Shown here piece by piece: positions 11,340 through 58,480 of a DNA stretch of 64,000 bases (position 1 is the stretch's first letter; the number at the start of each line of letters is the position of its first letter). Both the position numbers and the translations under genes were made by a program. The stretch covers positions 10,303 to 74,302 of the forward strand of contig JACZRI010000002.1 of NCBI GenBank assembly GCA_022574775.1, in the 5' to 3' direction. Origin of the DNA: Patescibacteria group bacterium (lineage in GTDB: Bacteria; Patescibacteriota; Minisyncoccia; Minisyncoccales; RBG-13-36-15). The notes under the pieces were generated by a model. The model did not search any database. It had not been told where the DNA came from and worked only from the letters and a program-made list of their open reading frames with translations.

Positions 11340-11412
11340 TCAAACATCTAAACATCTTAACATTTAAACATTTTTATGTTCATATACTTAAATGTTTGTG
11401 TGCTAAAATGAT
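11340..11412. repeat. CATYTAAA / TTTAAATG-type word hairpin (rplM-rplQ spacer)
   Basis: CATCTAAACATCTTAACATTTAAACAT ... CTTAAATGTTTGTGTGCTAAAATG. Confidence 0.85.
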
Positions 11413-13521: not shown

Positions 13522-13607
13522 TTATTGAAGTCTGAAGTATGAAGTCTGAAGATCTGAAGAATTTATAAAATTTCCTTCGTTTCTTCGCACTTTTTACTTC
13601 GTACTTT
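13522..13607. repeat. 86-nt word-hairpin spacer (GAAGTCT / CTTCGTA arms), copy 1 (rpsK-rpsD)
   Basis: Fills the spacer exactly from stop to GTG start. 85/86 identical to 14061-14146. Confidence 0.95.
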
Positions 13608-14060
13608 TTACACTCTTCTAACCTTAGGTGGTCGGCATCCGTTATGTGGAATAGGAGTTATGTCTTTAATAACTAAGATATCTAATCCTCTTGCAGCCAA
13701 AGACCTAATTGCTGACTCTCGGCCAGATCCTATACCTTTTACCAAAACCTCAATTCTTTCCACTCCCAATTTTTTGGCTTTCTGGACAATTCCTTCGGCT
13801 ACCTTTGATGCCGCAAAAGGAGTAGCTTTTTTTGTTCCCCTAAAGCCGATGTTGCCAGCTGAACTCCAAGCCAAAACCCTTCCCTGTAGATCGGTCAAAG
13901 TACAGATAGTGTTATTATAGCTTGTAGAAATATAAACTCTGCCTTCTTTAATCTTTTGCGAAGGCTTTATTTTAGCTTCTTTTTTAAGAGTTTGTTCAAT
14001 TTTCTCTCTTTCTTGAAGCAATTCCTCTTCAGTTTTCTCAACAATGCGTTTTTTACCCAC
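13608..14060 (-). CDS. rpsK: 30S ribosomal protein S11
   Basis: 150-aa GTG-start ORF with S11 core (NNTI.TLTD..G..L.W.S.G..GF.G.KK.TPFAA). Confidence 0.95.
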   Translation of the reverse strand: MGKKRIVEKTEEELLQEREKIEQTLKKEAKIKPSQKIKEGRVYISTSYNNTICTLTDLQGRVLAWSSAGNIGFRGTKKATPFAASKVAEGIVQKAKKLGVERIEVLVKGIGSGRESAIRSLAARGLDILVIKDITPIPHNGCRPPKVRRV

Positions 14061-14146
14061 TTATTGAAGCCTGAAGTATGAAGTCTGAAGATCTGAAGAA
14101 TTTATAAAATTTCCTTCGTTTCTTCGCACTTTTTACTTCGTACTTT
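14061..14146. repeat. 86-nt word-hairpin spacer, copy 2 (rpsM-rpsK)
   Basis: 85/86 identical to 13522-13607, and the flanking stop (TAA) and start (GTG) codons also match. Confidence 0.95.
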
Positions 14147-14536
14147 TTAGGTTGGCGCTGGTGGTAGCTTTCTTCCAGAACCTACGGTTTTGCGAACATT
14201 TCCGCGAACAGTTCTGTTGTTCGTTTTAGTTCTTTGTCCTCTTACTGGCAATCCTTTTATATGGCGAATTCCTCTCCAAGAACCAATATCTTTTAATCTT
14301 TTAATATTCACAATCTGTTCTCTGCGTAATTCTCCTTCAATTTTATAATTTTTTTCAATAACCTCTTTAAGTTGATTGACTTCAGCTGGAGTAAGCTGAA
14401 AAGCCCTTTTTGCGCGGTCAATTTTCGCTATAGTCAAAATCTTCCTACTCAAAGGTAAACCTACTCCGTAAATATAGGTTAAGGCAACTTCTATTTGTTT
14501 TTTTTCAGGGATATTAACCCCAGCAATTCTCGGCAC
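14147..14536 (-). CDS. rpsM: 30S ribosomal protein S13
   Basis: 129-aa GTG-start ORF beginning PRIAGVNIP..K....ALTYIYG.G. Confidence 0.95.
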   Translation of the reverse strand: MPRIAGVNIPEKKQIEVALTYIYGVGLPLSRKILTIAKIDRAKRAFQLTPAEVNQLKEVIEKNYKIEGELRREQIVNIKRLKDIGSWRGIRHIKGLPVRGQRTKTNNRTVRGNVRKTVGSGRKLPPAPT

Positions 14537-19554: not shown

Positions 19555-19824
19555 CTAGGAGCGCAGGGTTCGAACCACCAGAATCAATTGAGCGAAGCGA
19601 ATTCAGGCAAGATTCGAGGCGCGAGGAGTGATGCAATGCCGAACGACGAGCAACAAAGAAGCTTGCCTGAATTCACCCGCCCCTAAAGGAAGCTGAAAAA
19701 TGGCTGATTTCTTTGTTGCTCCTCCTTGAAGTAGTTTCCAACTACTCTTTCGTCGTCGCGTCGTGAAATCACCTCATTTTTCAGTTTCTCAAGCTGATTT
19801 TGGTTCAAATCCTGCGCTCCTAAG
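19555..19824. repeat. ~270-nt nested-palindrome element directly upstream of alaS
   Basis: Outer imperfect ~35-bp arms (19555-19592 / 19788-19824) enclose two hairpin domains (13-bp GAATTCAGGCAAG/CTTGCCTGAATTC and 10-bp CTGAAAAATG/CATTTTTCAG). Confidence 0.85.
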
Positions 19825-21499: not shown

Positions 21500-22330
21500 C
21501 TACTTCATTGCTTCAGCTAAGGCTCCAGCAATGGCTGCCAGGGCTTTAGCCCGCAAATAAGGATCGCTGATCTCAGCTGCTGCCTTGCGGGCTTGCTCAA
21601 AGTCTTGAGCTTCCTGAGTAACTCCAGCAATAGCTGCCAGGGCTTTAGCCCGAAAATTAGCTACGCTGATCTCAGCTGCTGCCTTGCGGGCTTGCTCAAA
21701 GTCCTGAGCTTCCTGAGTAACTCCAGCAATGACTGCCAGGGCTTCAGCCCGCCAATAAGGATCGCTGATCTCAGCTGCTGCCTTGCGGGCTTGCTCAAAG
21801 TCCTGAGCTTCCTGAGTAACTCCAGCAATGACTGCCAGGGCTTCAGCCCGAAAATTAGCTACGCTGATCTCAGCTGCTGCCTTGCGGGCTTGCTCAAAGT
21901 CCTGAGCTTCAGCTAAGGCTCCAGCAATGACTGCCAGGGCTTTAGCCCGCAAATAAGGATAGCTGATCTCAGCTGCTGCCTTGCGGGCTTGCTCAAAGTC
22001 CTGAGCTTCAGCTAAGGCTCCAGCAATGACTGCCAGGGCTTCAGCCCGCCAATAAGGATCGCTGATCTCAGCTGCTGCCTTGCGGGCTTGCTCAAAGTCT
22101 TGAGCTTCAGCTAAGGCTCCAGCAATGGCTGCCAGGGCTTCAGCCCGCAAATTAGCTACGCTGATCTCAGCTGCTGCCTTGCGGGTTAAATTCAAGACTT
22201 TATTAAAGATCCGAGGAAAAGCGATTTTCTGAGCATTCTCAATAAGCTCTTGTATCGCCTCTCCTGTGATTTTCCCTTCGGCTATCTGACCGAAAAACTC
22301 GCAGAGTTGCCTTACCGTAACAATTGACAT
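21500..22330 (-). CDS. Ala-rich tandem-repeat protein (7 x 33 aa alpha-solenoid-like), function unknown
   Basis: Start set at ATG 22330, preceded by AAAGGAGGT. A 51-aa unique N-terminus is followed by 7 repeats AAAEIS-xxxx-RA[EK]ALA[AV]IAG[ALAE/VTQE]AQDFEQARK. It has its own promoter-like site and terminator, and is GC-richer than its flanks. Confidence 0.8.
   Translation of the reverse strand: MSIVTVRQLCEFFGQIAEGKITGEAIQELIENAQKIAFPRIFNKVLNLTRKAAAEISVANLRAEALAAIAGALAEAQDFEQARKAAAEISDPYWRAEALAVIAGALAEAQDFEQARKAAAEISYPYLRAKALAVIAGALAEAQDFEQARKAAAEISVANFRAEALAVIAGVTQEAQDFEQARKAAAEISDPYWRAEALAVIAGVTQEAQDFEQARKAAAEISVANFRAKALAAIAGVTQEAQDFEQARKAAAEISDPYLRAKALAAIAGALAEAMK
21503..22180 (-). repeat. 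99-bp tandem repeat array (7 copies, last truncated)
   Basis: Period measured from recurring GCTTGCTCAAAGTC (21591 vs 21690, and onward). Copies differ only in a few discrete blocks. Confidence 0.95.
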
Positions 22331-22422
22331 GGCTGTACCTCCTTTGTACAATTTGACCAAGATTTATTATCCCAATGCACTCCCACCAGCACAATAAGAC
22401 ATTCGAACCCTGGCCTATTTCA

Positions 22423-23069: not shown

Positions 23070-23132
23070 CCCACCCCACCGCAATGGTTCGACAAGCTCA
23101 CCATCCTGAGTTTATCGAAGGAGCGGTGGGGC
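23070..23132. repeat. REP-like palindromic element (GGTTCGACAAGCTCACCATCCTGAG..TCGAAGG family) inside a CCACCGC/GCGGTGG clamp
   Basis: Family copies or half-copies at 3899-3937, 15207-15250, 23086-23122, 28087-28113, 51266-51307 and 62231-62268. Confidence 0.85.
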
Positions 23133-28086: not shown

Positions 28087-28113
28087 TGCTCACCATCCTG
28101 AGTTTACCGAAGG
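28087..28113. repeat. REP-like half element spanning the adk stop / map upstream junction
   Basis: GCTCACCATCCTGAGTTTACCGAAGGA. It supplies the adk stop codon context. Confidence 0.8.
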
Positions 28114-28805
28114 ATTACTTTTAAAATATCTTTAAAAACTCCCTCTACTGACTGCTTCCCCTCAATTTCTTTTACTTTTAATCCTTGTTTTCTAAATAAC
28201 CCAATCAGAGGAAAAGTTCTCTCTTTGTATTCTTTCAGTCTTATTTTAATAATTTCCGCATTATCATCCCTGCGCACTACTAATTTTGAGCCGTCCAAAG
28301 GGCATTTTTTTAATTTAGTGGTTTCTTTTGTGTATAAAACTGGGTGGCGCATTAATTCGCAACTTCTTCTATGAGAATTCCTCAAAATTGAGTCTTTACC
28401 GCTTAATTTAATCAGGATTACTTTAATGTTTTTTGCTCCGTACAATTTTTTTAAAAGCGGGATTAATTCTTTCCCTTCATAGAGTGTCCTTGGAGATCCT
28501 GAAGTCACTATTCCATTTTCCTCTTTTGCCAGCTCTCTGATTTTATTTTTTGTCCAAAATGTAATTAACGGCGGGCTCATCAATACTCCTGATTCTCTCA
28601 ATCGTTTTTCTTTTGAAAGAAAATATTTTTTATTATTTGCCGTTACAAAGTCGTTTTTTTTTGCTTTTGCTAAATTTTTCTCAATTATCTCGCTTGTCTC
28701 TAAATGATAAGAGTCTAATTTCTCTGACAAAAGCTCTGCCTGTGTTCCTTTTCCAGATCCCGGCGGACCCAAAAGAATTATTACTAATTTTTTGCTTTCT
28801 GGCAT
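28104..28805 (-). CDS. adk: adenylate kinase
   Basis: P-loop LLGPPGSGKGTQA and canonical position after secY. The last codons (ILR-stop) are encoded by a REP-like half element. Confidence 0.88.
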   Translation of the reverse strand: MPESKKLVIILLGPPGSGKGTQAELLSEKLDSYHLETSEIIEKNLAKAKKNDFVTANNKKYFLSKEKRLRESGVLMSPPLITFWTKNKIRELAKEENGIVTSGSPRTLYEGKELIPLLKKLYGAKNIKVILIKLSGKDSILRNSHRRSCELMRHPVLYTKETTKLKKCPLDGSKLVVRRDDNAEIIKIRLKEYKERTFPLIGLFRKQGLKVKEIEGKQSVEGVFKDILKVILR

Positions 28806-31802: not shown

Positions 31803-32345
31803 TTATTCAGCGGTTACCACCTTTTTTCCCGCTTTCTTCCTAACCACCTCTCCCATGTACCTTATTCCTTTCCCTTTATAAGGTTCAGGCTTGCGAACTT
31901 TTCTTATTCTCGCTGCAATCTGTCCAACTAATTCTTTATTAATACCTGAAATAATAATAACATTTTTTTCTACTAAAAACTGTATTCCCTCTGGCGCTTC
32001 TATTTTTACAGGATGAGTGAATCCGACCTGCAGAGTAAGTTCCTTTCCTTCAACTGAACCTTTATACCCTAAACCTTTAATCTCCAGTTTTTTTTCATAG
32101 CCATCGTTGACTCCTTTAATAAGGTTTGCGAGAATGGCCCTTGTTGTTCCCCATAATGCTTTAGTTTTTTTGATTTCAATTTGTGGTGAAACAAAAATTT
32201 TTTCATCCTTTAGTTCAGCTTTAACTTCAGGACAAATCTCATAAAAAAGCTCTCCTTTGGGCCCCTTTACTTTTACCTTGTTTCCGTCAATCTTAACCTC
32301 AACTCCTTGAGGTATCTCAATTGGTTTTTTACCTACGCGACTCAT
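31803..32345 (-). CDS. rplF: 50S ribosomal protein L6
   Basis: 180-aa ORF starting MSRVGKKPI.IP.GV.V. Confidence 0.95.
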   Translation of the reverse strand: MSRVGKKPIEIPQGVEVKIDGNKVKVKGPKGELFYEICPEVKAELKDEKIFVSPQIEIKKTKALWGTTRAILANLIKGVNDGYEKKLEIKGLGYKGSVEGKELTLQVGFTHPVKIEAPEGIQFLVEKNVIIISGINKELVGQIAARIRKVRKPEPYKGKGIRYMGEVVRKKAGKKVVTAE

Positions 32346-32412
32346 AAATCATTTAAGCATTTAAGCATTTTAACATTAAACATGTTTAGATGTTTGTATG
32401 TTTAGATGAAAT
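32346..32412. repeat. same family (rplF-rpsH spacer)
   Basis: CATTTAAGCATTTAAGCATTTTAACATTAAACATGTTTAGATGTTTGTATGTTTAGATG. Confidence 0.9.
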
Positions 32413-34557: not shown

Positions 34558-34806
34558 CTAAATCCTAGATATTACCCTCCACCTCTTATCCCTGCTTATT
34601 GGCCTGCATTCTTCAATAACAACCTTATCTCCCATTTTATATTCTTCTTTTTCATCATGTGCTTTATATTTCTTATGGACTTTATACCTTCTTTTATACC
34701 TCGGGTGTTGCCGGATGATTTCAATCTTAACAATTACTGTTTTTTGCATTTTGTCAGAAACAACAATTCCTGTTAATTTACGCTTTGGCATAATTAATTT
34801 AGACAT
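34558..34806 (-). CDS. rpsQ: 30S ribosomal protein S17
   Basis: 82-aa ORF with S17 pattern (L.G.VVSDKM.KT..V......HP.Y.K......K..AHD). Confidence 0.94.
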   Translation of the reverse strand: MSKLIMPKRKLTGIVVSDKMQKTVIVKIEIIRQHPRYKRRYKVHKKYKAHDEKEEYKMGDKVVIEECRPISRDKRWRVISRI

Positions 34807-34868
34807 TTAAGCATTTTTATATTTTAACAAAATTGATTTCTGTGCTTAAATGTTTAGATGTTTAAATG
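34807..34868. repeat. same family (rpsQ-rpmC spacer)
   Basis: CATTTAAGCATTTTTATATTTTAAC ... GCTTAAATGTTTAGATGTTTAAATG. Confidence 0.85.
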
Positions 34869-35051
34869 TTAAGATGATTTAAATACGGTAAGGATTCTTG
34901 CAATGTCCTTTCTTATTTTTCTTGCCTCTCTCACATTTTTTACTTTTCCTGCAGCCGAAGCAAATCTAAGCTGACGCAATTTTTCTCGACTTTCAGTTAA
35001 AGTCTTTTGTAATTCAACTTGAGATTTTTGTCGTAGCTCACTGGCTTTCAT
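34869..35051 (-). CDS. rpmC: 50S ribosomal protein L29
   Basis: 60-aa ORF MKASELRQKS..EL...L.E....L..LRF. Confidence 0.92.
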   Translation of the reverse strand: MKASELRQKSQVELQKTLTESREKLRQLRFASAAGKVKNVREARKIRKDIARILTVFKSS

Positions 35052-35602: not shown

Positions 35603-36283
35603 TTAAGAAGAGAACTTCTCTCCTTTATAAATCCATACTTTCACACCTACCACTCCATAACTACAATAGGCTTCCGAACTCGCGTAGTCAATATCTGCCC
35701 TTATGGTCTGACGCGGCAACCTCCCTTTTTTTAACCACGCCTTTCTTGCATACTCTGCTCCCCCCAACCTTCCTGCGATTTCTACCCTTGCGCCCTGAAC
35801 TTGTTTTGAATACATTATCCTTCCCAAAGCCTGTTTTAATACTCTTCTGTAAGGAAACCTTCTTTCTATTTGCTGTGCCATCCACTGACTAACCAATTGC
35901 GCATGTACCCAAGGATCTTTGATCTCCTTGATTTCCAACCTCATCTCTGGCGGCTTATCATTTTTTCTTCTCTTCCTGTCCACTAAAATCTTCTTAGGAC
36001 GAAGCTCCTTCTCTAAATTTCTCTTTAATTCCTCAATTCCTGATCCGCCGCGACCAATAATTAAACCAGGCCTTGCAGAAGTCATAATAATCGTTAATTT
36101 CCCAGGAGAACGTTCAATTTCGATCTTCTCTAAACTCATTTGTTTTAATCTCTCTTTTAGAAATTCTCTAATTCTAAAATCCTCCTCTAAAAATTGAGAG
36201 AAATCTTTTTTGCTTAACCAGCGAGAATTCCAATCAGCTGTTTCTTTTGTTCTAAAAATTTTAGGATGAACTCTATGACTCAT
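35603..36283 (-). CDS. rpsC: 30S ribosomal protein S3
   Basis: 226-aa ORF with KH domain and S3-C pattern (IIGRGGSGIEELK...GRLGGAEYAR). Confidence 0.95.
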   Translation of the reverse strand: MSHRVHPKIFRTKETADWNSRWLSKKDFSQFLEEDFRIREFLKERLKQMSLEKIEIERSPGKLTIIMTSARPGLIIGRGGSGIEELKRNLEKELRPKKILVDRKRRKNDKPPEMRLEIKEIKDPWVHAQLVSQWMAQQIERRFPYRRVLKQALGRIMYSKQVQGARVEIAGRLGGAEYARKAWLKKGRLPRQTIRADIDYASSEAYCSYGVVGVKVWIYKGEKFSS

Positions 36284-36366
36284 GTTGAATTACAAAATAT
36301 GAAGCATGAAGATCAAAGGATTTTTAAATATCTTTCTCTTTTTTTCGTACTTCGTACTTCAGACTA
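36284..36366. repeat. GAAG-word hairpin (rpsC-rplV spacer)
   Basis: ATGAAGCATGAAGATC ... TTCGTACTTCGTACTTCAGAC. Confidence 0.8.
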
Positions 36367-36885
36367 CTAAAATGCTTTTCGTTTAAAAAATCTTTTTGTT
36401 CCTTTTTCTACTTTCGGCTTAAGAAAACGAATTTCCGGTCTTAATTTAGGCTTTTCCGCCCGGCGCTCTTCGCCTTTTTGGAGTCCAACTTCCTTCTTTT
36501 GAATTTTCTCCTCCTTTGCTTTCTTTAACTTCTTAACTATTTTTTGCTTTGTTGCAATCTCATCCAATACTAAAATGATATGAGAGGTCTTTTTCTGAAT
36601 CTCTGAAACCTGACCTCGTGCTCTTGGCATCCATCTTTTTAATTTTGGCCCTTCATCAACTGTTATTTTTGAAATATAAAGATTGCCTTCTTCTATCTGG
36701 GAACTCTGTTTAATATTAGCTATAGCCTGCTTTAAAAGCTTAAGCACTGGAAGAGCTGCTTTCTTGGTAGTAAAATTTAAAAGAGCTTGGGCTTCCCTAA
36801 TAGATTTCCCTCTAATTAAGTCAGATATTAATCTCACTTTCCGAGGGGCAATTCGTAGATATCGAAGTTTAGCAGTTGAAGACAT
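36367..36885 (-). CDS. rplV: 50S ribosomal protein L22 with Lys/Glu-rich C-terminal extension
   Basis: L22 core (A.LRYLRIAPRKVRL..DLIRGK....A...L.F) followed by a charged tail of about 60 aa. Confidence 0.93.
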   Translation of the reverse strand: MSSTAKLRYLRIAPRKVRLISDLIRGKSIREAQALLNFTTKKAALPVLKLLKQAIANIKQSSQIEEGNLYISKITVDEGPKLKRWMPRARGQVSEIQKKTSHIILVLDEIATKQKIVKKLKKAKEEKIQKKEVGLQKGEERRAEKPKLRPEIRFLKPKVEKGTKRFFKRKAF

Positions 36886-38639: not shown

Positions 38640-39281
38640 TTAAGAATTAGCATTTTTTAGGAATGTTTCTTTTATAACTTTAATTGACTCTTTTGGCAAA
38701 AGTAAATATTTAAAAGATAGCAAATCCAGAGTATTTAAATCTCTCGCCTGAATAATTTCTACTTTCGGAATATTTTTTGCAGCCCTGATGATTGATTCTT
38801 CTTTTTTGGGAAGAGCGATCAAGCAAGATATATTTTTTATTGGTAATTTATTCAAAATTCCAGTCATCAATTTTGTCTTAGGTTTATCAATTTTCAAAGA
38901 ATCTAAGATAATTATTAAATTTTCTTTGGCCTTGGCGCTTATTGCCATAAATAACGCTTTTTTTCTCATTTTTTTCGGAATTTTCTTTTTGTAAGCTCTC
39001 GTCTTTCTTGGACCAAAAGTAACTCCACCTCCTCTCCAAATTGGGGATCTTATGGAACCAGCCCTTGCTCTTCCCGTCCCTTTCTGTCTCCAAGGTTTTT
39101 TTCCACCACCTCGGACTTCAGCTCTCGTTTTGGTATGGGCAATAGGAATTCTCCTATTTGCCATCTGGCTCACAACCACCTGATGAATTAAATCAGTATT
39201 AACTGGAATTCCGAAAATCTCTTTTGGTAATACTACATCTTTAGCCTTTTTTCCTTGTTGATTATAAACTGGGTATTTCAT
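38640..39281 (-). CDS. rplD: 50S ribosomal protein L4
   Basis: 213-aa ORF with L4 pattern (TKTRAEVRGGGKKPWRQKGTGRAR.GS.RSP.W.GGG..FGP). Confidence 0.95.
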   Translation of the reverse strand: MKYPVYNQQGKKAKDVVLPKEIFGIPVNTDLIHQVVVSQMANRRIPIAHTKTRAEVRGGGKKPWRQKGTGRARAGSIRSPIWRGGGVTFGPRKTRAYKKKIPKKMRKKALFMAISAKAKENLIIILDSLKIDKPKTKLMTGILNKLPIKNISCLIALPKKEESIIRAAKNIPKVEIIQARDLNTLDLLSFKYLLLPKESIKVIKETFLKNANS

Positions 39282-39487
39282 GTTTTGTAGAAGCGGGTTT
39301 ACGCGGATCTAAAGGAAGTCAGACTCCCCTCTAAAGACTTTCTTGAAGCAAGGGTAAGCTCCTCAAAGAGCATCTCGGAGCCCCAGACAGCATGGTCCCG
39401 CCCAGGGCGGGTGTCGGGGTGAGAGTTGAACAGCAATTTCTCGCTGGGAAATTGACTGTGTCTCTTTGATGGGGCTTACCCGAGCGC
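39282..39487. repeat. GC-rich structured element filling the rplC-rplD spacer
   Basis: 206-nt spacer with hairpins CCCGCC/GGCGGG, GCTCC/GGAGC and CAATTTC-TCGCTGG-GAAATTG. The last is homologous to 45317-45341. Confidence 0.8.
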
Positions 39488-40126
39488 TTATCCTCTAATC
39501 TCAAGAAGTGTACCTCTCCTGCCAGGAATAGCACCTTTCATTGCAATCAAATTGTTTTTAGCATCAATTTTAACTATTTCCAAATTTTTAACTGTTATTC
39601 TTTCAAACCCCATTCTCCCCGGCATTTTTTTTCCTTTAATCACTCTTTCTGGAAAAGAGGATCCAACAGAACCGAGAGTTCTCGCTTCATGTTTTACTCC
39701 ATGAGAAGCTCCTCTTCCCGCGAATCCCCATCTTTTCACAGCTCCTTGAAAACCTTTTCCTTTTGAAATCCCAGACACCTTAACCATATCCCCAGCTTGA
39801 AATATAGAAATATCTATTTTATCGCCAACTTTATATTTGCTATTTTGCCCGTCTGCAGCAGATCCCTGCTCGTCGGCAAGCAAGACGCCTTTGGCAGAAA
39901 ATTCTCTTAAATACCTGAAAGGTTTTTGCGTCTGTGGTTTCTTAATTTTTTTTTTCTTCTCTATTCTTTCAAAACCGATCTGAGTAGCTTCGTAACCATC
40001 TTTCTTTTTGTTTTTTATTTGCGTAACAAAACAGGGACCAGCTTCAATCACTGTCACTGGAACAACATTGCCTCTTTCATCAAATAGTTGGGACATTTCT
40101 AATTTTTTACCTAAGATAAATTTCAT
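39488..40126 (-). CDS. rplC: 50S ribosomal protein L3
   Basis: 212-aa ORF with L3 pattern (GKK..M.Q.F...G..VPVTVIEAGPC.V.Q.K...; KGKGFQG..KR). Confidence 0.95.
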   Translation of the reverse strand: MKFILGKKLEMSQLFDERGNVVPVTVIEAGPCFVTQIKNKKKDGYEATQIGFERIEKKKKIKKPQTQKPFRYLREFSAKGVLLADEQGSAADGQNSKYKVGDKIDISIFQAGDMVKVSGISKGKGFQGAVKRWGFAGRGASHGVKHEARTLGSVGSSFPERVIKGKKMPGRMGFERITVKNLEIVKIDAKNNLIAMKGAIPGRRGTLLEIRG

Positions 40127-42341: not shown

Positions 42342-42420
42342 CTATCTCCTTTTCCCTTCTATAATCTCTTGTGCGATATTCTGAGGGACCTCCTCATATT
42401 TGTCGAATTCCATTGTAAAG
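42342..42420 (-). pseudogene. orphan duplicate of the fusA 3' end (last ~26 codons plus stop)
   Basis: 42358-42420 is identical to 42577-42639. It continues GAA GGG AAA AGG AGA TAG, which also encodes EGKRR-stop. No upstream reading frame is attached. Confidence 0.85.
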
Positions 42421-42576
42421 TCGCTCGCTCAGCTCGCTCTTTAGACACCTCTCGGTTTCTAACGTTTCCGCCTCAGCGGCGGAAGCCTGTTTTCCTACAC
42501 GGGAAAACACCCAGTTTTCCCGACCCCTTTCTGCTTTACGATGGAATTATTCTGAAAAAATCAACGCCTCTTGCCC
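42421..42576. repeat. GC-rich structured element inserted behind the fusA stop
   Basis: Hairpins GGGAAAAC/GTTTTCCC and TTCCGCC/GGCGGAA. Shares the ACACGG...CCCGACCCCTTTCTG and GGTTTCT(A/T)ACGT blocks with 45395-45542. Confidence 0.8.
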
Positions 42577-44666
42577 TCTATAATCTCTTGTGCGATATTC
42601 TGAGGGACCTCCTCATATTTGTCGAATTCCATTGTAAAGGTTCCTCTGCCTTCTGTCATTGATCTTAAAGATGTTGCATAGCCAAACATTTGAGCTAAAG
42701 GAACTTTTGCATCAATTACTTTAAGATTCAATCTGTCTTTTGTTTCCTCTATCTTTCCTCTTCTCGTTGCCAAATCCCCAATAGTATCTCCAAAAAATTC
42801 AGAAGGAATGGTCACTTCCAGACGCATTATCGGTTCAAGCAAAACGGGCTTTGCTCTTTTAGAGGCTGTTTGCAAAGCCATGGATGCTGCTATCTTAAAA
42901 GCAATCTCCGAAGAATCAACGTCGTGGTAAGAACCATCATATAAAATTGCCTCAATGTCAACCATAGGGTAACCCGCAACAACACCTCTTTCCATAGCCT
43001 CTATCACCCCTTTTTTCACGGCAGGAATGAACTCTTGAGGGATAGTTCCTCCCTTAATTTCATTAGTAAACTCAAACCCGTCTCCTCTTTCCTTAGGTTT
43101 CAAACGCAAGAACACATGACCATACTGACCCCTCCCCCCTGTCTGTTTGATGTATTTTCCTTCAGCAAAAGATTCTCCTTTGATTGTTTCTTTATAGGCA
43201 ACTTGCGGCCTTCCAACTGCAACTGAAACCTTAAACTCCCTGCGCATTCTATCATTGATTATCTCTAAATGCAGCTCTCCCATTCCAGAAATAATAGTTT
43301 CTCCAGTCTCCAAATCACTTTTAACTTTAAAAGTTGGATCCTCTTCAGCTAATTTTTTTAATGCCATGCCCATCTTCTCTTGGTCTGCTCTCGTTTTTGG
43401 CTCAATGCGAATTGAAATAACTGGTTCCGGGAATGAGATTTTTTCCAAAACAATCGGAGAATTCAAATCGCAAAGAGTATGACCAGTAATGGTTTTTTTC
43501 AGCCCAAGGGTCGCAGCAATATCTCCAGCAAAAAGCTCTTCTACTTCTTCACGTTCTGCAGCATGCATTCTTAAAATCCTCCCAATTCTTTCCTTCTCAC
43601 CAGTGGTTGGATTTAATAAATAAGATCCTTTTTGCAAAAAGCCTGAATAAACACGGAAATAATTCAAAGTTCCAACATAAGGGTCAGAAGCTGTTTTGAA
43701 AACTAAAGCTGAAAAAGGCTCTGAATCTACGGCCTTCCTCTCAATTTCCTGACCAGTTTTCGGATCAGTTCCTTTCACTGGAGGCAAATCAATTGGGCTT
43801 GGCAGAAAATCCACGACTCCATCCAAAAGAAGTTGAACTCCTTTATTTTTCAACGCTGATCCACAAAATACCGGAATGATCTTATAGTCAACGGTGGCAG
43901 ATCTCAACACATCCCTTAATTCATCAACTGAAATTTCTTTTTGAGCTAAGTATTTTTCCAAAAGCTTTTCGTCTTCAGCTGCGATTTTTTCCACTAATTT
44001 CTCTCGCCATTCTTCTGCCTGTTCTTTTAAATTTTTAGGTATCTCTTCTTCAACGATATTCTGACCGAAATCGCCATCAAATTTTATTGCTTTTTGCGTT
44101 AAAAGATCAATCACTCCTTCAAAATTTTCTTCAGCTCCAATCGGTATTTGAACAGCCACTGCATTAGGAGATAATTTTTCCAAAATTGATTGCAGGCTCT
44201 TTTCAAAAGAAGCTCCCATTCTATCAAGTTTATTAATAAAACAAATTCTCGGCACCTCAAACTTATCTGCTTGATGCCAAACAGTTTCTGACTGGGGTTC
44301 CACTCCCGCAACTCCGTCAAAAATTACTACTGCCCCGTCTAAAACCCGCAAGGATCTCTGAACTTCAGCGGTAAAATCAATGTGGCCAGGAGTATCAATA
44401 ATGTTAATCCTATGCTCATTTGCTTTTTTTCTTTCCAAATCCCGAGGGGTCCAAAAACAAGTGGTGGCTGCCGCCGTAATGGTAATTCCCCTTTCTCTTT
44501 CCTGTTCCATCCAATCCATAATAGCTGTGCCCTCATGAACCTCTCCAATTTTATGAGAAATCCCGGTATAAAAAAGCACCCGTTCCGTAACGGTTGTTTT
44601 TCCAGCGTCTATGTGAGCAATGATGCCAATATTACGAGTCTTTTCAACAGGATATTGCCTTGGCAT
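42561..44666 (-). CDS. fusA: elongation factor G
   Basis: 701-aa ORF with AHIDAGKTT and DTPGH motifs and EF-G domains II-V pattern. Confidence 0.98.
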
Positions 44667-44712: not shown

Positions 44713-44741
44713 TTGACAAATTTGAAGTATGGGTTTATAAT
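44713..44741 (+). promoter_or_regulatory. consensus sigma70-type promoter of cassette A
   Basis: TTGACA (44713-18), 17 nt, TATAAT (44736-41). The 23-nt block CTTGACAAATTTGAAGTATGGGT is identical to 50230-50252. Confidence 0.75.
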
Positions 44742-44782
44742 GGAAACAGCTATTTCAATATTCGAAAAGGAAGGAGGAAACA

Positions 44783-45118
44783 GTGGTTACTAAAACAAGG
44801 CTAGATCCGGCAAGAGCTAAGAGATACATTCTTGCTGGCCAGTCCATGCACAATATGATCATCGAGGGGAACCTGGATCTCTCTGGTGAAATCTTCGAAA
44901 AAGATATATACCTCTTTGACGTAACCATCAAAGGAGATCTGGATCTCAGAGATGCAATCATCCTGGGGAGTTTGCAACTCCAACGTGCGACCATCAAGGG
45001 AGATATGAACCTCGCCACCAAGTCTGGACCAACGAAGATCATCGTGAGTCCTGCAATGGCTGAACAGGTCCGCCAGCTGGCACCTCCCCACGTCCATATT
45101 GAAGTTCAAGCGGAATAG
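44783..45118 (+). CDS. cassette A: 111-aa hypothetical protein with short beta-solenoid-like repeats
   Basis: GTG start 5 nt after GGAAGGAGG. Repeats [10 protein letters not shown] / [10 protein letters not shown] / [10 protein letters not shown] / [12 protein letters not shown]-richer than neighbours, opposite strand to all flanking genes, with a terminator right after the stop. Confidence 0.6.
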
Positions 45119-45133
45119 CTAACCAAAGTCCCT

Positions 45134-45168
45134 AGCAGGCGGACTCTAAATGCCTGCTTTTTTATTTT
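45134..45168 (+). terminator. intrinsic terminator of cassette A
   Basis: AGCAGGC / GCCTGCT stem followed by TTTTTTATTTT. No T-run in the opposite direction. Confidence 0.8.
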
Positions 45169-45169: not shown

Positions 45170-45542
45170 AATCTACCACGCCAAATTACGAGTAAACTCT
45201 ACACGAGTCCGGAACTCGTAATAATAAACCCTTAGAGCGAGGCAACTGCTAAAAAGGACATCCGCAGGCTCGCGGCCATGGTATCGCTGAAGGCGACGAG
45301 CGAGTCGAGGACTAAGCAGAATTTCTCGGTGGGAAATTCTGTGGTCCTTTGAAGCACGTTGCCGAGCGTTTTATCAGGCCAAATGGTCGCTTCGCCAGAT
45401 ACCGTACGGTACCTGGCTTCGCCACGCTGACGTGGCTCCGCTTCTAAAACACCTTCGGTTTCTTACGTCACTCTTCGGGCTCCTATTTTTCCAACACGGA
45501 GAGATATTCAATCTCCCCGACCCCTTTCTGTGCCATTTTGCC
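45170..45542. repeat. composite GC-rich structured intergenic element abutting the rpsG stop
   Basis: Several hairpins (e.g. CAGAATTTC/GAAATTCTG at 45317-45341 and CCAGATACC/GGTACCTGG). Modules are shared with 39282-39487 and 42421-42576. Confidence 0.8.
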
Positions 45543-46010
45543 TTACCAGGCAAAATGGGCAAAAGCCCTATTAGCTTCTGCCATTCGGTGGATATTTTCT
45601 TTCTTTCTAACTGCCCAGCCAGTATTGCTTGCCGCATCAATCATTTCCTCGGCTAATTTTGCTCGCATTGGTTTTCCTTTTTTCGCTTTAGCCCCTTGAA
45701 TAATCCAACGCATCGCCAAAGTCAATTTTCTCTCCCCTCTTACTTCTCTCGGCACTTGATAGGTTGCTCCTCCAATTCTTTTTGATTTTACCTCAAGCAA
45801 AGGGGATGCATTCTTAAGGGCTTTATCAAAAATATCCAAGGGTTCCTTTTTTGTTTTTTCTTTAATAATATCTAACGCCTGATAAACGATTCTCCTCGCC
45901 AGTATCTTTTTCCCTTGACGCATCACCTGATTAATAAATTTTGACACAACAATATTATTATAAACAGGATCTGGCGATATTACTCTTTTTGCTATTTTTT
46001 TCCTACCCAT
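45543..46010 (-). CDS. rpsG: 30S ribosomal protein S7
   Basis: 155-aa ORF with S7 pattern (PD..Y.......F.N..M..GKK..A..I.Y.A...I). Confidence 0.96.
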   Translation of the reverse strand: MGRKKIAKRVISPDPVYNNIVVSKFINQVMRQGKKILARRIVYQALDIIKEKTKKEPLDIFDKALKNASPLLEVKSKRIGGATYQVPREVRGERKLTLAMRWIIQGAKAKKGKPMRAKLAEEMIDAASNTGWAVRKKENIHRMAEANRAFAHFAW

Positions 46011-46597: not shown

Positions 46598-47212
46598 TTA
46601 AAAGAGTGGGACGCCAACGATTAGTTGGAAAACCAGATTAACAATGTGGATTACCCATCTGAAAAAAAAGAAAAAAATAAAAAGTAGTATAAAAAGGCCG
46701 AATTGGTTTAAAAATATTTTTATTTTTTGTAAAGAATAAGGCAAAAAAGTAAATAGAATATGGGATCCATCCAAAGGCGGAACTGGCAACAAATTAAATA
46801 CAGCCAACAGGATGTTTATAAAAACAATATAACTGAACATTAGATAAATCCCAGGATTATCGGCTAATACCGGGATAAAACGAAGAGTCAAGCCGAAAAC
46901 TAAAGCCAATGCTAAATTCGCAGCAGGTCCGGCTAATGCTACTTTAGCTGAACCGTACTTCTGATCTCGTAAATTATGCGGGTTAATGGGAACTGGCTTT
47001 GCCCAGCCAAATAATATTGGGCTCTTTAAAAGAAGCAGAAACAACGGAACAATAACAGAACCAAATGGATCCAAGTGTTTTATCGGATTTAAGGTAAGTC
47101 TGCCTGCATATCTCGCAGTCGGATCACCCAAATAATCAGCCATCAATCCATGGGACACTTCATGAATAACAACGGAAAATAAAAGGATTGCCAATAAAAA
47201 AATATACTCCAT
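46598..47212 (-). CDS. M50 site-2 protease family membrane metalloprotease
   Basis: 204-aa polytopic ORF with HEVSHG and NLLPVPPLDGSH motifs. Confidence 0.82.
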   Translation of the reverse strand: MEYIFLLAILLFSVVIHEVSHGLMADYLGDPTARYAGRLTLNPIKHLDPFGSVIVPLFLLLLKSPILFGWAKPVPINPHNLRDQKYGSAKVALAGPAANLALALVFGLTLRFIPVLADNPGIYLMFSYIVFINILLAVFNLLPVPPLDGSHILFTFLPYSLQKIKIFLNQFGLFILLFIFFFFFRWVIHIVNLVFQLIVGVPLF

Positions 47213-49318: not shown

Positions 49319-50176
49319 TTATTTTATTTTAAGGTTTGCTCCATCGGAAATAATTTTTATATCTCCTTCCTCGTCAGTTCTTAGCACCCTTATACCATAT
49401 TCCTTTAAGATTGCCAAAGTTTCTTGATGAGGATGGCCATAACGGTTGCTTTTCCCAACAGAAATAACGGCAATTTTGGGCAAAATTTGTTCAATAAATT
49501 CTTCTGAGGTTGAAGTCTTGCTTCCATGATGACCAACTTTTAAAACATCAGTTTTAAGATTAGCGTCAGCTCCAATAATTTTTTTCTCAACAGATTTGTA
49601 AGCGTCTCCAGTAAATAAAAAAGAGTTTTGATTAAAAACTAAGAGGCTGATAATTGATGTATTGTTGCTGTTTTTAAATTCTTTACCCTCCAAGTTTTCA
49701 AACGGGTTTAAAATATCAAAATAAATCCCTTCTCCCAATCTAATTTCTTGACCGGCTTGAACTATTTTAATTTCTGCTCCTTCTTCTTCAATCAACTTTC
49801 TCCATTCTTTATTCTCATTAGTATCTCTTACTATCCCTGTCCATAAGATATAATCAACTTTATATCTCTCCAAAACCTGAAGCAAACCAGCTAAATGGTC
49901 GTGCTCTGGATGGGTTAAAATAATAAGATCAATTGTTCTGTCCCAAAAAGGCATCTCCTCTGCCAGTTTTTCCAAAATTATAGAGGACGGGCCTCCGTCA
50001 ATTAAAATTTGATGCCCTTGAGGAGTCTCAATAAAAATACTATCCCCCTGGCCTACGTCAAAAAAAGTAACTTCAAGAAATCTTGGTTGGCTCAAATCAT
50101 AAACAGCAATCCAGGCAAGAATGTTGAAGAAGAAAAGAATTCCTAAAACAACTAAGGCATCGTTATTTCTTTGCAT
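49319..50176 (-). CDS. ComEC/Rec2-related metallo-beta-lactamase-fold hydrolase
   Basis: 285-aa ORF with an N-terminal TM helix and DVGQGDS, THPEHDHLAG and GHHGS motifs. Confidence 0.8.
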   Translation of the reverse strand: MQRNNDALVVLGILFFFNILAWIAVYDLSQPRFLEVTFFDVGQGDSIFIETPQGHQILIDGGPSSIILEKLAEEMPFWDRTIDLIILTHPEHDHLAGLLQVLERYKVDYILWTGIVRDTNENKEWRKLIEEEGAEIKIVQAGQEIRLGEGIYFDILNPFENLEGKEFKNSNNTSIISLLVFNQNSFLFTGDAYKSVEKKIIGADANLKTDVLKVGHHGSKTSTSEEFIEQILPKIAVISVGKSNRYGHPHQETLAILKEYGIRVLRTDEEGDIKIISDGANLKIK

Positions 50177-50230
50177 TGGTTTTATTATAATTGAGTTAAG
50201 AATTATTTAAAATAAAAAAATGCCAACTCC

Positions 50231-50259
50231 TTGACAAATTTGAAGTATGGGTGTATGAT
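50231..50259 (+). promoter_or_regulatory. promoter of cassette B (paralog of the cassette A promoter)
   Basis: TTGACA (50231-36), 17 nt, TATGAT (50254-59). The 23-nt block is identical to 44712-44734. Confidence 0.75.
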
Positions 50260-50305
50260 TGAAATAAGTTCGACGGGATTAGTCAAATAGGAAGGAGGAA
50301 CGCAA

Positions 50306-50578
50306 ATGCAAGAAACAGCTGTTATGACCAAAGAAGAAATCACTAAATCGCAGTTCTATGCGGGCGACAATTGGGGAAGAAAACTGAAACAAGAACTGGC
50401 TGCCGTCCAAGAACCTCTACTGGGTAAACGAATCGTAAAGGTGGAGATTACCCCTGGTTTCGAAGATCAACCATTTACGGTCGGGAAATACCCAAGGCTC
50501 ACCATCACCGTGGAGGACGGCACCAAACTATATTTCAACCTTCCTCAAGAACACGAGTTTGGCATCAAGATTCCCTGA
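50306..50578 (+). CDS. cassette B: 90-aa hypothetical protein
   Basis: ATG 7 nt after GGAAGGAGG. GC-richer than its flanks, followed by a terminator. No recognisable family. Confidence 0.6.
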   Translation: MQETAVMTKEEITKSQFYAGDNWGRKLKQELAAVQEPLLGKRIVKVEITPGFEDQPFTVGKYPRLTITVEDGTKLYFNLPQEHEFGIKIP

Positions 50579-50611
50579 CATTTATTCCGCCACAAGGGCT
50601 TCGGCTCAAGA

Positions 50612-50648
50612 AAGTCTCTTAACAACCAGTTAAGAGACTTTTGCATTT
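50612..50648 (+). terminator. intrinsic terminator of cassette B
   Basis: 12-bp stem AAGTCTCTTAAC / GTTAAGAGACTT followed by TTGCATTT. Confidence 0.7.
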
Positions 50649-50733
50649 AACCCCTATCACCTTCTCAAACTCTTCTGTTTTATTACACTTTCGCCTCTAT
50701 ATTAAAAAGAACAGAGGTGCCCCAACCCTGAAC

Positions 50734-50759
50734 TGGTCGTGCTCTGGATGAGTTAAAAT
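50734..50759 (-). pseudogene. 26-nt fragment duplicating the HPEHDH-motif region of the ComEC-like gene
   Basis: 25/26 identical to 49896-49921. Lies upstream of the gene, beyond cassette B. Confidence 0.7.
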
Positions 50760-51265: not shown

Positions 51266-51307
51266 GGCTTCGACAAGCTCAGCCTTGACCCTGAACCTGT
51301 CGAAGGA
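51266..51307. repeat. REP-like element copy
   Basis: GGCTTCGACAAGCTCAGCCTTGACCCTGAACCTGTCGAAGGA. Confidence 0.85.
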
Positions 51308-58266: not shown

Positions 58267-58480
58267 AAAAAAAATCCCACTTCGAGTGGAATAAACCTAT
58301 CCAGACTGTCCAGCCTGGACTAAACTTCTCCTTTGCTCGAAGGTAGAGGTTAAAAATATTGTGCCCACTTCGTAAAACTTCAGAAGGCAAGGATGGTATT
58401 CTGACTTTCACAGTTACGGCATAGTCCCGGATTTTCACCGGCGTTCCCCATCCACTGTTAAGGTTCGTTAGTATAGGATA
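58267..58480 (-). promoter_or_regulatory. cobalamin (B12) riboswitch
   Basis: Minus strand GGAUGGGGAACGCCGGUGAAAAUCCGGGACUAUGCCGUAACUGU core and B12-box-like AGUCAGAAUACCAUCC (58386-58406). A hairpin plus U8 abuts the AUG. Confidence 0.85.

Follow-up and report, generated by a model that had tools for sequence, protein, structure and literature searches.

A family of short, structured sequences at tRNA and conserved-gene ends in Patescibacteria: candidate insertion elements with replacement gene ends

Introduction

Patescibacteria account for much of bacterial diversity and have been described as poor in classical mobile elements. The locus considered here lies in a 64-kb stretch of patescibacterial DNA (64,000 nt; hereafter the window), in which rpsG, fusA, rplC and rplD are all carried on the minus strand (Table 1). 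The spacer between rpsG and fusA is nearly 900 nt long in the window, as against 9-26 nt in relatives, and structured sequence is found directly behind the stop codons of both genes. What is this sequence, and how did it come to lie there? The reading that we favor, at a probability of roughly 0.55 with its mechanism included, is that the two copies belong to a family of small, ORF-less, non-autonomous insertion elements found at the ends of tRNA genes and conserved protein genes.

Two copies of one element behind rpsG and fusA

The window was searched with a covariance model (CM R1) trained on 48 copies, all from outside it. Matches were obtained behind fusA (copy B, 42467-42532; 47.1 bits, E 3.7e-11) and behind rpsG (copy A1, 45469-45529; 37.3 bits, E 1.7e-8); no third copy was found in the 64 kb, the next match scoring 13.6 bits. 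The copies span 42421-42548 and about 45386-45542, with the minus (gene) strand as sense. CAGAAAGGGGTCGGG has exactly two occurrences (42519-42533, 45516-45530), and ACGTWAGAAACCGA is found at 42452 and 45455. A sequence-only reading of the window had claimed a module shared by the two sites and placed right after the stop codons, and both points hold; the copies are placed and oriented far from randomly with respect to gene ends. The gene-end direct repeats, the antisense stretch and the minus strand as sense had been overlooked.

At fusA, the end of the gene is present twice, as a 73-nt direct repeat (42567-42639 and 42348-42420, 96% identity). The last codons are GAG GGC AAG AGG CGT TGA in the repeat on the gene side (DR1) and GAA GGG AAA AGG AGA TAG in the other, both encoding EGKRR*. 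Between the core and the fusA stop lies a 15-nt antisense stretch (X′), a 93% match to the reverse complement of 42406-42420 and of 42625-42639. Its pairing with the fusA tail covaries between the window and a related genome, L013, where an A:T pair is replaced by G:C.

At rpsG, DR1 and X′ pair over 10-11 bp in a hairpin that surrounds the stop codon. Tail and X′ change together here as well, from CCATTTTGCC/GGCAAAATGG in the window to CCACTTTGCG/CGCAAAGTGG in L013, in which the orthologue of the displaced tail (DR2), at the same position, reads CCATTTGGCTTGGTGA. The core of copy A1 folds more stably than shuffled sequences (z -4.0).

Table 1. Coordinates of genes and element features in the window. 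All features are on the minus strand.
Feature	Position	Description
rpsG	45543-46010	
fusA	42561-44666	
rplC	39488-40126	
rplD	38640-39281	
Copy A1, DR1	45543-45558	rpsG last codons and stop, CCATTTTGCCTGGTAA
Copy A1, X′	45533-45542	GGCAAAATGG, directly 3′ of the rpsG stop
Copy A1, core	45387-45532	P2 45499-45519; P3 45445-45465; 3′ domain with two hairpins; GAAGCGA end, then C
Copy A1, DR2	45371-45386	displaced, decayed rpsG tail, CCATTTGGCCTGATAA
Copy B, DR1	42561-42639	functional fusA 3′ tail; repeat 42567-42639; stop TGA 42561-42563
Copy B, spacer	42549-42560	12 nt, ahead of X′
Copy B, X′	42534-42548	AATTCCATCGTAAAG; complements CTTTACAATGGAATT, first 15 nt of the repeated fusA tail
Copy B, core	42421-42533	AGAAAGGGGUCGGG, P2, CCGUGUAGGAAA, optional hairpin, P3, 3′ domain to GAGCGAGCGA, then C at 42420
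Copy B, core helices	42501-42521; about 42464-42486; 42441-42462	P2; optional hairpin; P3
Copy B, DR2	42342-42420	displaced native fusA tail; own stop TAG 42342-42344, then native flank ATAATCCAC
Module 2, copy A2	45228-45372	three-way junction right after the old rpsG stop; 157 bits
Module 2, copy C	39340-39490	rplC-rplD spacer, rplC stop to rplD start region; 173 bits

Anatomy and fold of the family

On the sense strand the order is functional gene end, short spacer, X′ (10-24 nt, antisense), core, and a displaced second gene end. The element is about 110-200 nt long, ORF-less and purine-rich on this strand. Its core, of which about 70 nt are conserved, runs through AAGGGGUCGGG, hairpin P2, CCGUGUAGGAA, an optional hairpin, hairpin P3 and variable hairpins to GAGCGAC; the displaced native gene end, a direct repeat of the functional one, follows directly. 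Tandem arrays of the element were seen in L046 and L128, and a possibly circularly permuted relative in L116.

Covariation statistics were limited to 48 copies without the optional hairpin, because CM R1 mis-assigns P3 where that hairpin is present, as it is in both window copies. In these 48, 96.7% of the P2 and P3 cells were paired (84.2% in shuffles) and the covariation score was 0.351 (0.119 shuffled); none of 500 shuffles reached either the pairing or the covariation value. The hairpin that had been singled out from the two sites, with stems GGGAAAAC/GTTTTCCC and GGAGAGAT/ATCTCCCC taken to differ in a compensatory way, is the covarying family helix P2, and the conserved block GGTTTCT(A/T)ACGT is the 5′ strand of P3. 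Selection on a folded nucleic acid, as proposed from those changes, is borne out by P2 and P3 and by the compensatory pairs of module 2 (described below); covariation is strong and placement non-random, the opposite of the lack of covariation and random position that would have spoken against it.

X′ complements the upstream gene end with a score of 10.0 (5.4 shuffled), and 57% of copies score at least 9, against 1% of shuffles, both under a strict Watson-Crick test. In 91 of 112 copies, folding of the sense strand is favored over that of the complement by 4 kcal/mol. GNA and GNG triloops predominate in the hairpins, and the sense strand has 45 instances of GCGAAGC, a DNA mini-hairpin motif, and none of its complement. 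The oligonucleotide d(GCGAAGC) forms a nuclease-resistant DNA mini-hairpin that is present in origins of single-stranded DNA phages (PMC13037366). With this strand bias, a hairpin DNA substrate, the other half of the proposal, is a live possibility; the hairpin covariation and the tolerance of G.T/G.U pairs fit RNA and single-stranded DNA alike and cannot separate the two.

Distribution and targets

A scan of public genomes and metagenomes placed the core in more than 130 places among the matches listed, and all genuine genome matches are to metagenome-assembled genomes of Patescibacteria (CPR). Matches in high-GC genomes outside the CPR did not contain the rest of the core and were discarded. 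Viral contigs gave no match with two search patterns, and no autonomous full-length version of the element was found, viral contigs included.

Among the 111 unique copies scanned, exact direct repeats of 13-67 nt are present in most and no clear repeat in about 25. In a stricter re-analysis, a repeat of at least 13 nt was present in 49 copies (median 19, range 13-63). The target was a tRNA 3′ end in 41 of these 49, with the repeat starting in the T-loop; ARAGORN placed the tRNA gene immediately upstream of the element and on the same strand. The element itself was not called as a tRNA or tmRNA, the only calls being the genuine upstream tRNAs. The protein-gene targets are the tails of fusA, rpsG, rpsJ and an FtsZ-like gene and, in the opposite orientation, the 5′ ends of fusA-like and lepA-like genes. 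Repeats stop exactly at stop or start codons, and the same core is found at genes unrelated to one another and at more than 15 tRNA species.

Insertion at RNA 3′ ends (tRNA ends, stop codons, after terminators) would also be expected of a SINE-like retroelement, in which the core RNA is copied by a reverse transcriptase acting in trans, X′ serves much like a primer-binding site to which a tRNA (or an mRNA fragment) anneals by its 3′ end, and template switching or target-primed synthesis produces the repeats. X′ does complement tRNA 3′ ends, with TGG opposite CCA in some copies; the repeat-antisense-internal-repeat layout resembles the LTR-PBS-internal-LTR order, the better-folding strand is the sense strand, and the L116 relative may be circularly permuted. 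Even so, we consider this quite unlikely. None of about 110 copies has a reverse transcriptase gene nearby and no group II intron or retron is matched in Rfam; X′ contains tRNA trailer sequence and is therefore derived from the gene and not from the mature tRNA; the DNA-type mini-hairpin motif is strongly enriched; and the repeats are diverged homologues, both evolved as coding sequence, not identical insertion duplications.

Replacement gene ends and empty sites

The divergence of the repeats was followed in several copies. The two fusA tails of L013 are 66% identical, with differences spread over their length, and both encode the EF-G tail (three amino acid differences). L006 encodes DIPTFLRKRRK* twice with 10 synonymous differences, and the two stop codons in L047 are TAG and TGA. 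The element-side fusA tails of the window and L013 have the post-stop spacer and X′ in common, and it is this sequence, not the native flank, that follows the stop of DR1 in copy B; the displaced tails of the two loci share the native flank. In copy B, DR1 would accordingly be the fusA tail supplied by the element. The window tails show no difference over 64 nt and diverge only in their final stretch, so that an extra step of gene conversion or crossover is needed there.

Empty sites were found as well. In the related genome L141, fusA has one tail only, with ...ATCCACAA behind it, and the element is absent. L141, L143/144 and L145, whose RpsG is 80-81% identical to that of the window, have no copy in the str/S10 operon, and their fusA follows rpsG by 9-26 nt. 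The rpsJ site carries a copy in L013 and L047 and none in the window. Taken together, the synonymous differences between gene-end copies and the empty sites in close relatives show the element to be inserted sequence that carries a substitute end for its target gene. Both the window and L013 have the rpsG and the fusA copy, and for these common sites vertical inheritance is as plausible a fit as homing. Copies from different sites of one genome resemble each other more closely (86%) than those occupying the same site in two genomes (66%).

Two simpler sources of the repeats were discarded. A target-site duplication does not fit the many synonymous differences, the stop codons that can differ and the loss of similarity exactly at ORF boundaries; a template/variable repeat pair of a diversity-generating retroelement does not fit gene-tail differences that are not adenine-specific, and no reverse transcriptase is present. 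The two copies had also been described as bracketing cassette A plus fusA. They do flank it physically, but a single unit is not supported, each copy having its own target repeat. A composite of two copies around cassette A and fusA was rejected: the related genome L013/L139 has both copies and no cassette A, and a further relative, L145, has a cassette and no copy.

Part of these observations could be accounted for by a cis-acting host RNA, that is, a processing, stabilizing or insulating element of polycistronic or tRNA transcripts, maintained for its benefit to the host and spread solely by ordinary recombination, for example a 3′ protective structure or a translation-sensing switch in which X′ alternates between the translated tail and the downstream copy. 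Most copies are co-oriented with, and immediately behind, a stop codon or tRNA end, and the sense strand folds better than the complement. X′ covaries with the functional gene tail and forms a hairpin around the stop, the tail-antisense-tail layout has the 1:2/2:3 geometry of an attenuator, the same two sites are kept in the window and L013, and module 2 always lies 0-3 nt past a stop and reaches the next start codon. We regard such a role as unlikely, since the elements are absent from these essential operons in close relatives and the gene-end copies have diverged as coding sequence in different lineages, which implies import and not evolution in place. At gene 5′ ends there are copies that run antisense to the host gene, and those antisense to host transcription (L062, L075) argue against a purely cis-acting RNA role. 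The modules are without a terminator-like T-run, tandem arrays occur, and a single core serves unrelated genes and tRNA species.

Alternatively, no dedicated mechanism may be needed: a neutral structured insertion could be spread among CPR genomes by DNA uptake and RecA recombination alone, with the conserved gene as left homology arm and the duplicated end as right arm. The targets are among the most conserved bacterial sequences (tRNAs, EF-G at 12 loci, S7, S10, L3); the element-side tail is foreign and the distal part of the displaced tail native, as expected if a double crossover has its right arm within the repeat; and the search for an enzyme among neighboring ORFs found none. This account leaves unexplained the first creation at each new target, the conserved GAGCGAC junction, the universal antisense stretch, and a core so strongly conserved and covarying. 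Homology in L013 breaks off within 5 nt of the junction, and a right arm of 13-20 nt is little for RecA to work with. We consider this account very unlikely.

Searches for a known family or a linked enzyme

Searched against Rfam 15 at gathering thresholds, the whole window gave only a tRNA and an AdoCbl-II riboswitch; between 39000 and 46200, with E values up to 5, only chance-level matches were obtained, none of them on the modules. A terminator scan of the minus strand found no hairpin with a T-run at the 3′ end of either window copy, and an intrinsic terminator was rejected. In the published literature searched there was no account of such an element, only precedents for parts of it (e14/icd, mini-hairpin DNA, attC), and the element matches no described RNA or transposon family that we found.

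A total of 571 ORFs beside about 110 copies were clustered and gave housekeeping families only, EF-G being the commonest. No recombinase, transposase or reverse transcriptase recurs among them, and none was found in the window ORFs checked. The RAYT/TnpA-REP or IS200/605 TnpB enzyme that had been suggested as a partner is among the enzymes not found in these two sets. A REP/RAYT, IS200/IS605 or attC-type hairpin element served by an HUH/Y1 transposase, TnpB or integron integrase would explain the compensatory hairpins, the intergenic site after genes and the single-strand folding signature. It is nonetheless largely refuted and has become highly improbable: no RAYT, TnpA, TnpB or IntI is encoded in the window ORFs checked or near copies; the long direct repeats of the target (13-73 nt, also against an IS200/IS605 element of the PATE type) are not made by those families, and a replacement gene end is foreign to them; and Rfam, which we assume to hold IS605-type RNA motifs, gave no match. 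The R′′/L′′/L′/R′ boxes of attC (RYYYAAC...GTTRRRY) and an intI gene were likewise not found, the latter in the window ORFs checked and near copies. Instead, GAGCGAC forms the 3′ junction, with the target copy behind it, and antisense sequence specific to the target makes up the 5′ side.

Other families were compared in the same way. As in integrative elements, there are att-like direct repeats of a gene end and a functional replacement; no integrase gene lies inside the element, which is 110-200 nt long and has no ORF. Group II introns and retrons find no Rfam match in the window and no reverse transcriptase beside copies. The inverted segments, unlike those of a MITE, are X′ and the target copy and change with each target, and the repeats measure 13-73 nt. 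No recombinase gene, such as that beside an IS110 bridge RNA, adjoins any copy.

Proposed mechanism and related systems

We propose that the mobile unit is the gene-end copy with the spacer, X′ and core, and that it moves as DNA. Its sense strand would fold when single-stranded, and X′ would pair with the gene-end copy, the resulting duplex imitating the chromosomal target. The strands would then be exchanged at the GAGCGAC/target junction, either by a recombinase acting in trans or by host recombination after DNA uptake, and replication would fix the insertion. Insertion into essential genes would be harmless because the element supplies a working gene end. How X′ switches to a new gene has no account in this model and counts against it, and no circular or excised form was seen. 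Tentatively, and with more doubt than the insertion reading itself, the family could represent a new class of protein-less mobile elements targeted by base pairing, which combine a folded strand (DNA, or RNA by way of a reverse transcriptase), a target-complementary stretch, a fixed GAGCGAC/target junction and a spare gene end, and would depend on a possibly guided recombination activity of Patescibacteria.

Replacement of a gene end has precedents in phage e14 at icd, Rac at ttcA and DLP12 at argU (PMC6379469). Like these prophages and the islands in tRNA genes, the element sits at a tRNA 3′ end or at either end of a protein gene, a homologous replacement end keeps the gene intact, the native fragment is left as a direct repeat of the attL/attR type, and the gene-end copies differ by synonymous changes. 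Unlike them, it measures 110-200 nt, has no integrase or other ORF and no full-length parent that was found, and uses one core, an antisense stretch and covarying hairpins for dozens of unrelated targets.

With integron attC sites and the attP hairpin of CTX phage (see PMC5027507, PMC4792948), it shares a strand that folds better, paired inverted segments that mimic the partner duplex, a stem structure conserved above sequence and a site right after ORFs. It differs in having no attC boxes, integron integrase or dif-like site and in mimicking a different gene end in each copy; unlike in attC, the core sequence is highly conserved.

MITEs, REP/BIME, Correia and RPE elements are likewise small, ORF-less, multi-copy, structured, intergenic and presumably mobilized in trans. 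Their terminal inverted segments are element-specific and not target-derived as here, and in place of short fixed duplications the present element has gene-end homologues of 13-73 nt and an insertion site tied to gene ends. The IS110 bridge RNA, the IS200/605 omega RNA and the EBS of group II introns resemble it in that a structured noncoding segment complements the adjoining target and changes with it. Here, by contrast, no IS110, TnpB or intron-encoded protein and no Rfam match was found, the antisense is one contiguous run of 10-24 nt, and the gene end is duplicated and replaced.

The atp6-ORF360 element of Allomyces is a free-standing homing-endonuclease element with a replacement gene terminus. 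There, too, foreign coding sequence takes the place of the resident C-terminal segment, and what remains of the native tail is a pseudogene fragment; that element encodes its homing endonuclease, whereas the present one has no ORF.

If the element moves, bringing the gene end along is a minimal safe way into essential genes and points to a recombination activity that base pairing may direct and that would interest genome engineers. If it is a host regulatory RNA instead, it is a new and widespread cis-element of CPR translation-gene operons. Gene callers and tRNA finders will encounter duplicated gene tails and pseudo-tRNA ends, and the core offers a ready-made marker and a candidate for a new RNA or DNA structure family.

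A separate structure in the same spacers

Behind the displaced rpsG tail, a second module begins (copy A2), with a further copy in the rplC-rplD spacer (copy C). The sharing of a short stem-loop between these two spacers had been pointed out, and this part stands and is much larger: the copies align over about 150 nt as one three-way junction with nine compensatory pairs. The C:G to G:C swap reported in it does not stand, TCGGTGG/TCGCTGG being one loop substitution. Both copies fold more stably than shuffled sequences (z -4.5 for 45228-45372 and -5.4 for 39340-39490). Orthologues are found in the same spacers, of copy A2 in L013/L139 (65 bits) and of copy C in L013/L139 (67 bits) and L143/L144 (31 bits). 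Module 2, which always starts 0-3 nt after a stop codon and extends to the next start codon, is a structured intercistronic element separate from the gene-end element.

Module-1 copies in the rpsL-rplD region

The window derives from a Patescibacteria (CPR) metagenome-assembled genome (ENA ERZ27267408), has a G+C content of about 36% and carries nearly all of its genes on the minus strand. Within the gene order rpsL-rpsG-fusA-tuf-rpsJ-rplC-rplD, three spacers hold islands of 50-60% G+C (see table). A sequence-only reading had proposed a common module after rpsG and fusA, and this was confirmed: the minus strand of both copies of the GC-rich element, here module 1, runs CAGAAAGGGGTCGGG, a hairpin, CCGTGTWGGAAAA and, further on, ACGTWAGAAACCGA. 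With 48 module-1 copies from outside the window as its basis, a covariance model matched exactly two sites in the 64 kb, at 47.1 bits (E 3.7e-11) and 37.3 bits (E 1.7e-8), the third-best match scoring 13.6 bits. Within the family, the hairpin first noticed corresponds to helix P2 and the 'GGTTTCT(A/T)ACGT' block to one strand of helix P3; their covariation holds across 48 copies. The window pair was interpreted, with a probability of about 0.55, as two copies of an insertion element widespread in Patescibacteria, which lacks ORFs, replaces gene ends and apparently is so far undescribed. Anatomy and mobility-type evidence are both firm.

Coordinates of the features (X', stretch antisense to the target gene end)
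Feature	Positions	Strand	Remark
50-60% G+C island	45228-45542		spacer after rpsG
50-60% G+C island	42421-42560		spacer after fusA
50-60% G+C island	39340-39490		rplC-rplD spacer
fusA copy, 73-nt repeat	42567-42639 and 42348-42420	-	
fusA copy, X' AATTCCATCGTAAAG	42534-42548	-	complementary to first 15 nt of repeat
rpsG copy, gene end CCATTTTGCCTGGTAA	45543-45558	-	
rpsG copy, X' GGCAAAATGG	45533-45542	-	
rpsG copy, decayed second gene end CCATTTGGCCTGATAA	45371-45386	-	
Small-ORF cassette A	44713-45160	+	strand opposite to host genes
Small-ORF cassette B	about 50230-50650	+	strand opposite to host genes
Small-ORF cassette, locus L145	2400-2800		strand opposite to host genes
7-8 nt repeat arrays, example spacers	2726-2806, 11342-11411, 13518-13610, 14057-14149, 32342-32409, 34788-34877, 36278-36382		

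Family size, host range and covariation

A pattern scan covering a single genome for each species gave true module-1 copies in Patescibacteria MAGs only (Saccharibacteria, Nealsonbacteria, Staskawiczbacteria, Berkelbacteria and unclassified lineages); the other matches were discarded as high-GC chance matches without the rest of the core. The metagenome scan comprised at least 120 loci, and at least 133 copies, of which at least 117 were unique, were extracted overall. The viral contigs scanned gave no match, and no Rfam family matched the modules. Covariation statistics come from 48 copies lacking the optional internal hairpin: helices P2 and P3 were paired at 96.7% (84.2% in shuffles), with a covariation score of 0.351 (0.119 in shuffles). 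Neither observed value was equalled in 500 shuffles, and both collapsed when the partners were slid. The P3 pair types were varied, for example UUAGAAAC/GUUUCUAA, UUCAAAAC/GUUUUGAA, UGCGGAAC/GUUCCGCA and CAUGAAAC/GUUUCAUG.

Anatomy and targets

On the purine-rich sense strand, all well-preserved copies follow a constant order of gene end, short spacer, X', core and second gene end; X' comprises 10-24 nt antisense to the adjoining gene end, and the core terminates in GAGCGAC. Exact repeats, 13-67 nt long, are present in most of the 111 unique copies scanned. A stricter re-analysis gave 49 copies whose exact repeat reached 13 nt or more, and in 41 of them the target was a tRNA 3' end; in tRNA-targeting copies the repeat starts in the T-loop or just after it, and the genuine tRNA gene is found immediately upstream in the same orientation. 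Further targets are protein genes: fusA, rpsG, rpsJ and an FtsZ-like gene at their tails and, in opposite orientation, EF-G-like, LepA-like and L11-like genes at their 5' ends. Among protein neighbours EF-G is the most frequent (12 loci), and tandem module-1 arrays occur at loci L046 and L128.

X' was assessed by strict Watson-Crick scoring of the 24 nt preceding the core. Mean complementarity to the upstream, functional gene end was 10.0 (5.4 in shuffles), with a score of 9 or more in 57% of copies and 1% of shuffles; complementarity to the downstream gene-end copy was weaker (7.2 versus 5.95), and the upstream end was the better match in 69 of 98 copies. X' covaries with the rpsG tail (CCATTTTGCC/GGCAAAATGG in the window versus CCACTTTGCG/CGCAAAGTGG in locus L013 from another genome) and with the fusA tail, where an A:T pair becomes G:C.

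Proposed replacement gene ends and empty sites

The two gene-end copies did not arise as duplications at insertion; the element would supply its own gene end. The fusA tails of L013 are 66% identical, with differences spread over the whole length, and both encode the EF-G tail with 3 amino acid differences. Gene-side fusA tails of the window and L013 have the post-stop spacer and X' in common; downstream of the displaced tails both genomes have the native flank ATAATCCAC. DIPTFLRKRRK* is encoded twice at L006 with 10 synonymous differences and FAHFAR* twice at L107 with four; the copies at L047 end in TAG and TGA. Likeness between the copies ends exactly at stop or start codons, as expected if one copy came from another lineage and only coding sequence was conserved. 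In this two-copy pattern module 1 resembles the integrations of e14 at icd, Rac at ttcA and DLP12 at argU, left by integrases that target gene ends (PMC6379469).

Comparison of related loci indicates that module 1 is an insertion that turns over. L141/142, L143/144 and L145 (S7 80-81% identical to that of the window) have the operon without any module-1 copy; in L141, 9 nt separate the rpsG stop from the fusA ATG, and a single fusA tail is followed by ...ATCCACAA. L013/L139 has copies at rpsG, fusA and rpsJ; L047 likewise has one at rpsJ, where the window has an empty site. Identity is 86% between the rpsG and fusA copies within the L013/L139 genome, and only 66% between the rpsG copy of the window and that of L013/L139.

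The suggestion that the two copies bracket cassette A plus fusA did not hold: L013/L139 has both copies and no cassette A, L145 has a cassette and no module 1, and each copy has its own target repeat. The three small-ORF cassettes share a perfect sigma-70 promoter, TTGACA-17-TATAAT (12/12), inside CTCTTGACAAATTTGAAGTATGGGT, and a GGAGG ribosome-binding site; their ORFs (111, 90 and 89 aa) differ, and none has a match in Pfam. The rpsG-fusA site that holds cassette A is also that of the L145 cassette, and the two have an identical terminator, AAAAAAGCAGGCATTTAGAGTCCGCCTGCT. A decayed fusA 5' end lies at 45185-45223 (ACTCGTAATTTGGCG versus ACTCGTAATATTGGC at 44631-44652), adjoined by inverted ATTACGAGT; with cassette A, fusA seems to have acquired a new 5' end and leader, a putative mirror image of tail replacement. 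A 26-nt direct repeat (96%) links 50734-50759, in the spacer beyond cassette B, with 49896-49921, inside the MBL-fold gene 49319-50176.

Nature of the putative mobile form

In 91 of 112 copies the fold of the sense strand is about 4 kcal/mol more stable than that of its complement. On the sense strand GCGAAGC is found 45 times, the complementary motif never; the dominant triloops are closed by C:G. Many tRNA copies have AGCGAAGCG exactly at the repeat boundary within the T-loop copy. As DNA, d(GCGAAGC) is an extraordinarily stable, nuclease-resistant mini-hairpin known in ssDNA phage origins (PMC13037366). Part of the copies is antisense to host transcription, and a host cis-RNA is an unlikely reading. 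Because of the strand bias in folding and in GCGAAGC, the triloops, the known hairpin and the antisense copies, we lean towards a folded single-stranded DNA stage, short of proof, likened to integron attC sites and the CTX phage (PMC5027507 and PMC4792948).

Neither near module-1 copies (as a recurrent neighbour) nor among the window ORFs checked was an integrase, transposase, HUH protein, TnpB or reverse transcriptase found, and the copies examined included no full-length parent element. A retroelement is quite unlikely, and the REP/IS200-type element proposed earlier highly improbable. For the insertion element preferred here, the folded strand would cross over at GAGCGAC|target, catalysed by an enzyme in trans or by host recombination; spread by passive recombination only is distinctly improbable.

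Module 2

Module 2 is an element distinct from module 1. Its two window copies, 45228-45372 and 39340-39490, have a common three-way junction with 9 compensatory pairs; what had been reported as a 'C:G to G:C swap' is a substitution in the loop. A model built from both found orthologues in the same two spacers of L013/L139 and, in Nealsonbacteria, copies both in the rplC-rplD spacer and downstream of an MBL-fold gene. Module 2 always starts 0-3 nt past a stop codon with CGYTCGG(C/G)AA, extends into the leader of the next gene and has no target repeats. In the window, module 1 was inserted downstream of the rpsG stop, ahead of a module 2 that was already there; L013 has the same order. A further GC-rich element follows the frr stop (4159) at 3975-4129 on the minus strand. 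It has a perfect 24-bp inverted repeat, GCGAGGAAATGTAACTTTTTGGAC, and is preceded by CCGTTCGGCAACGAAGCCTCAAAG, resembling the module-2 start; its module-2 score is weak (13 bits).

Other repeats and features

Upstream of alaS, a further element family of about 270 nt (19556-19822, minus strand) contains GAATTCAGGCAAGC...GCTTGCCTGAATTC and has as its closing stem an inverted repeat of 21-22 bp resembling a tRNA 3' end, GGTTCGAACCCTGCGCTCCTA; no tRNA gene adjoins it in the window, and a relative (locus L042, about 330-480) adjoins a module-1 copy. At locus L116, an inverted insertion (1019-1200), absent from L127, looks like a circularly permuted relative of an rpsG-type module-1 copy, with CCCCCGTGATGGAA at its start, the P3 region then GGGGGTCGGGGG at its end, and one hairpin with an AT-rich insert. 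Short GC-rich REP-like palindromes, CTTCGACAGGYTCA...GTCGAAG, occur in spacers at 3913-3939, 23083-23109, 28088-28114 and 51269-51281. Arrays of 7-8 nt repeats (GAAGTCT, ACTTCGT, TAAACAT/ATGTTTA) form paired inverted blocks beside many window genes, and L143 and L145 have ATTCGTA repeats between module 2 and start codons. Within ORF 21500-22360, 6-7 tandem 99-nt repeats (21523-22207) encode 33-aa units (...AEALAVIAGALAEAQDFEQARKAAAEIS...) without a Pfam match. An AdoCbl-II riboswitch (58392-58452, minus strand, 43.8 bits) precedes a cluster with a corrinoid adenosyltransferase and, judged from translation, a probable class II ribonucleotide reductase. Two M50-peptidase ORFs are present (46598-47212 and 2806-3885, both minus strand); the former, just upstream of rpsL, has 204 aa and matches the C-terminal part of the family profile only, and a similar short ORF occurs at the same place in relatives.
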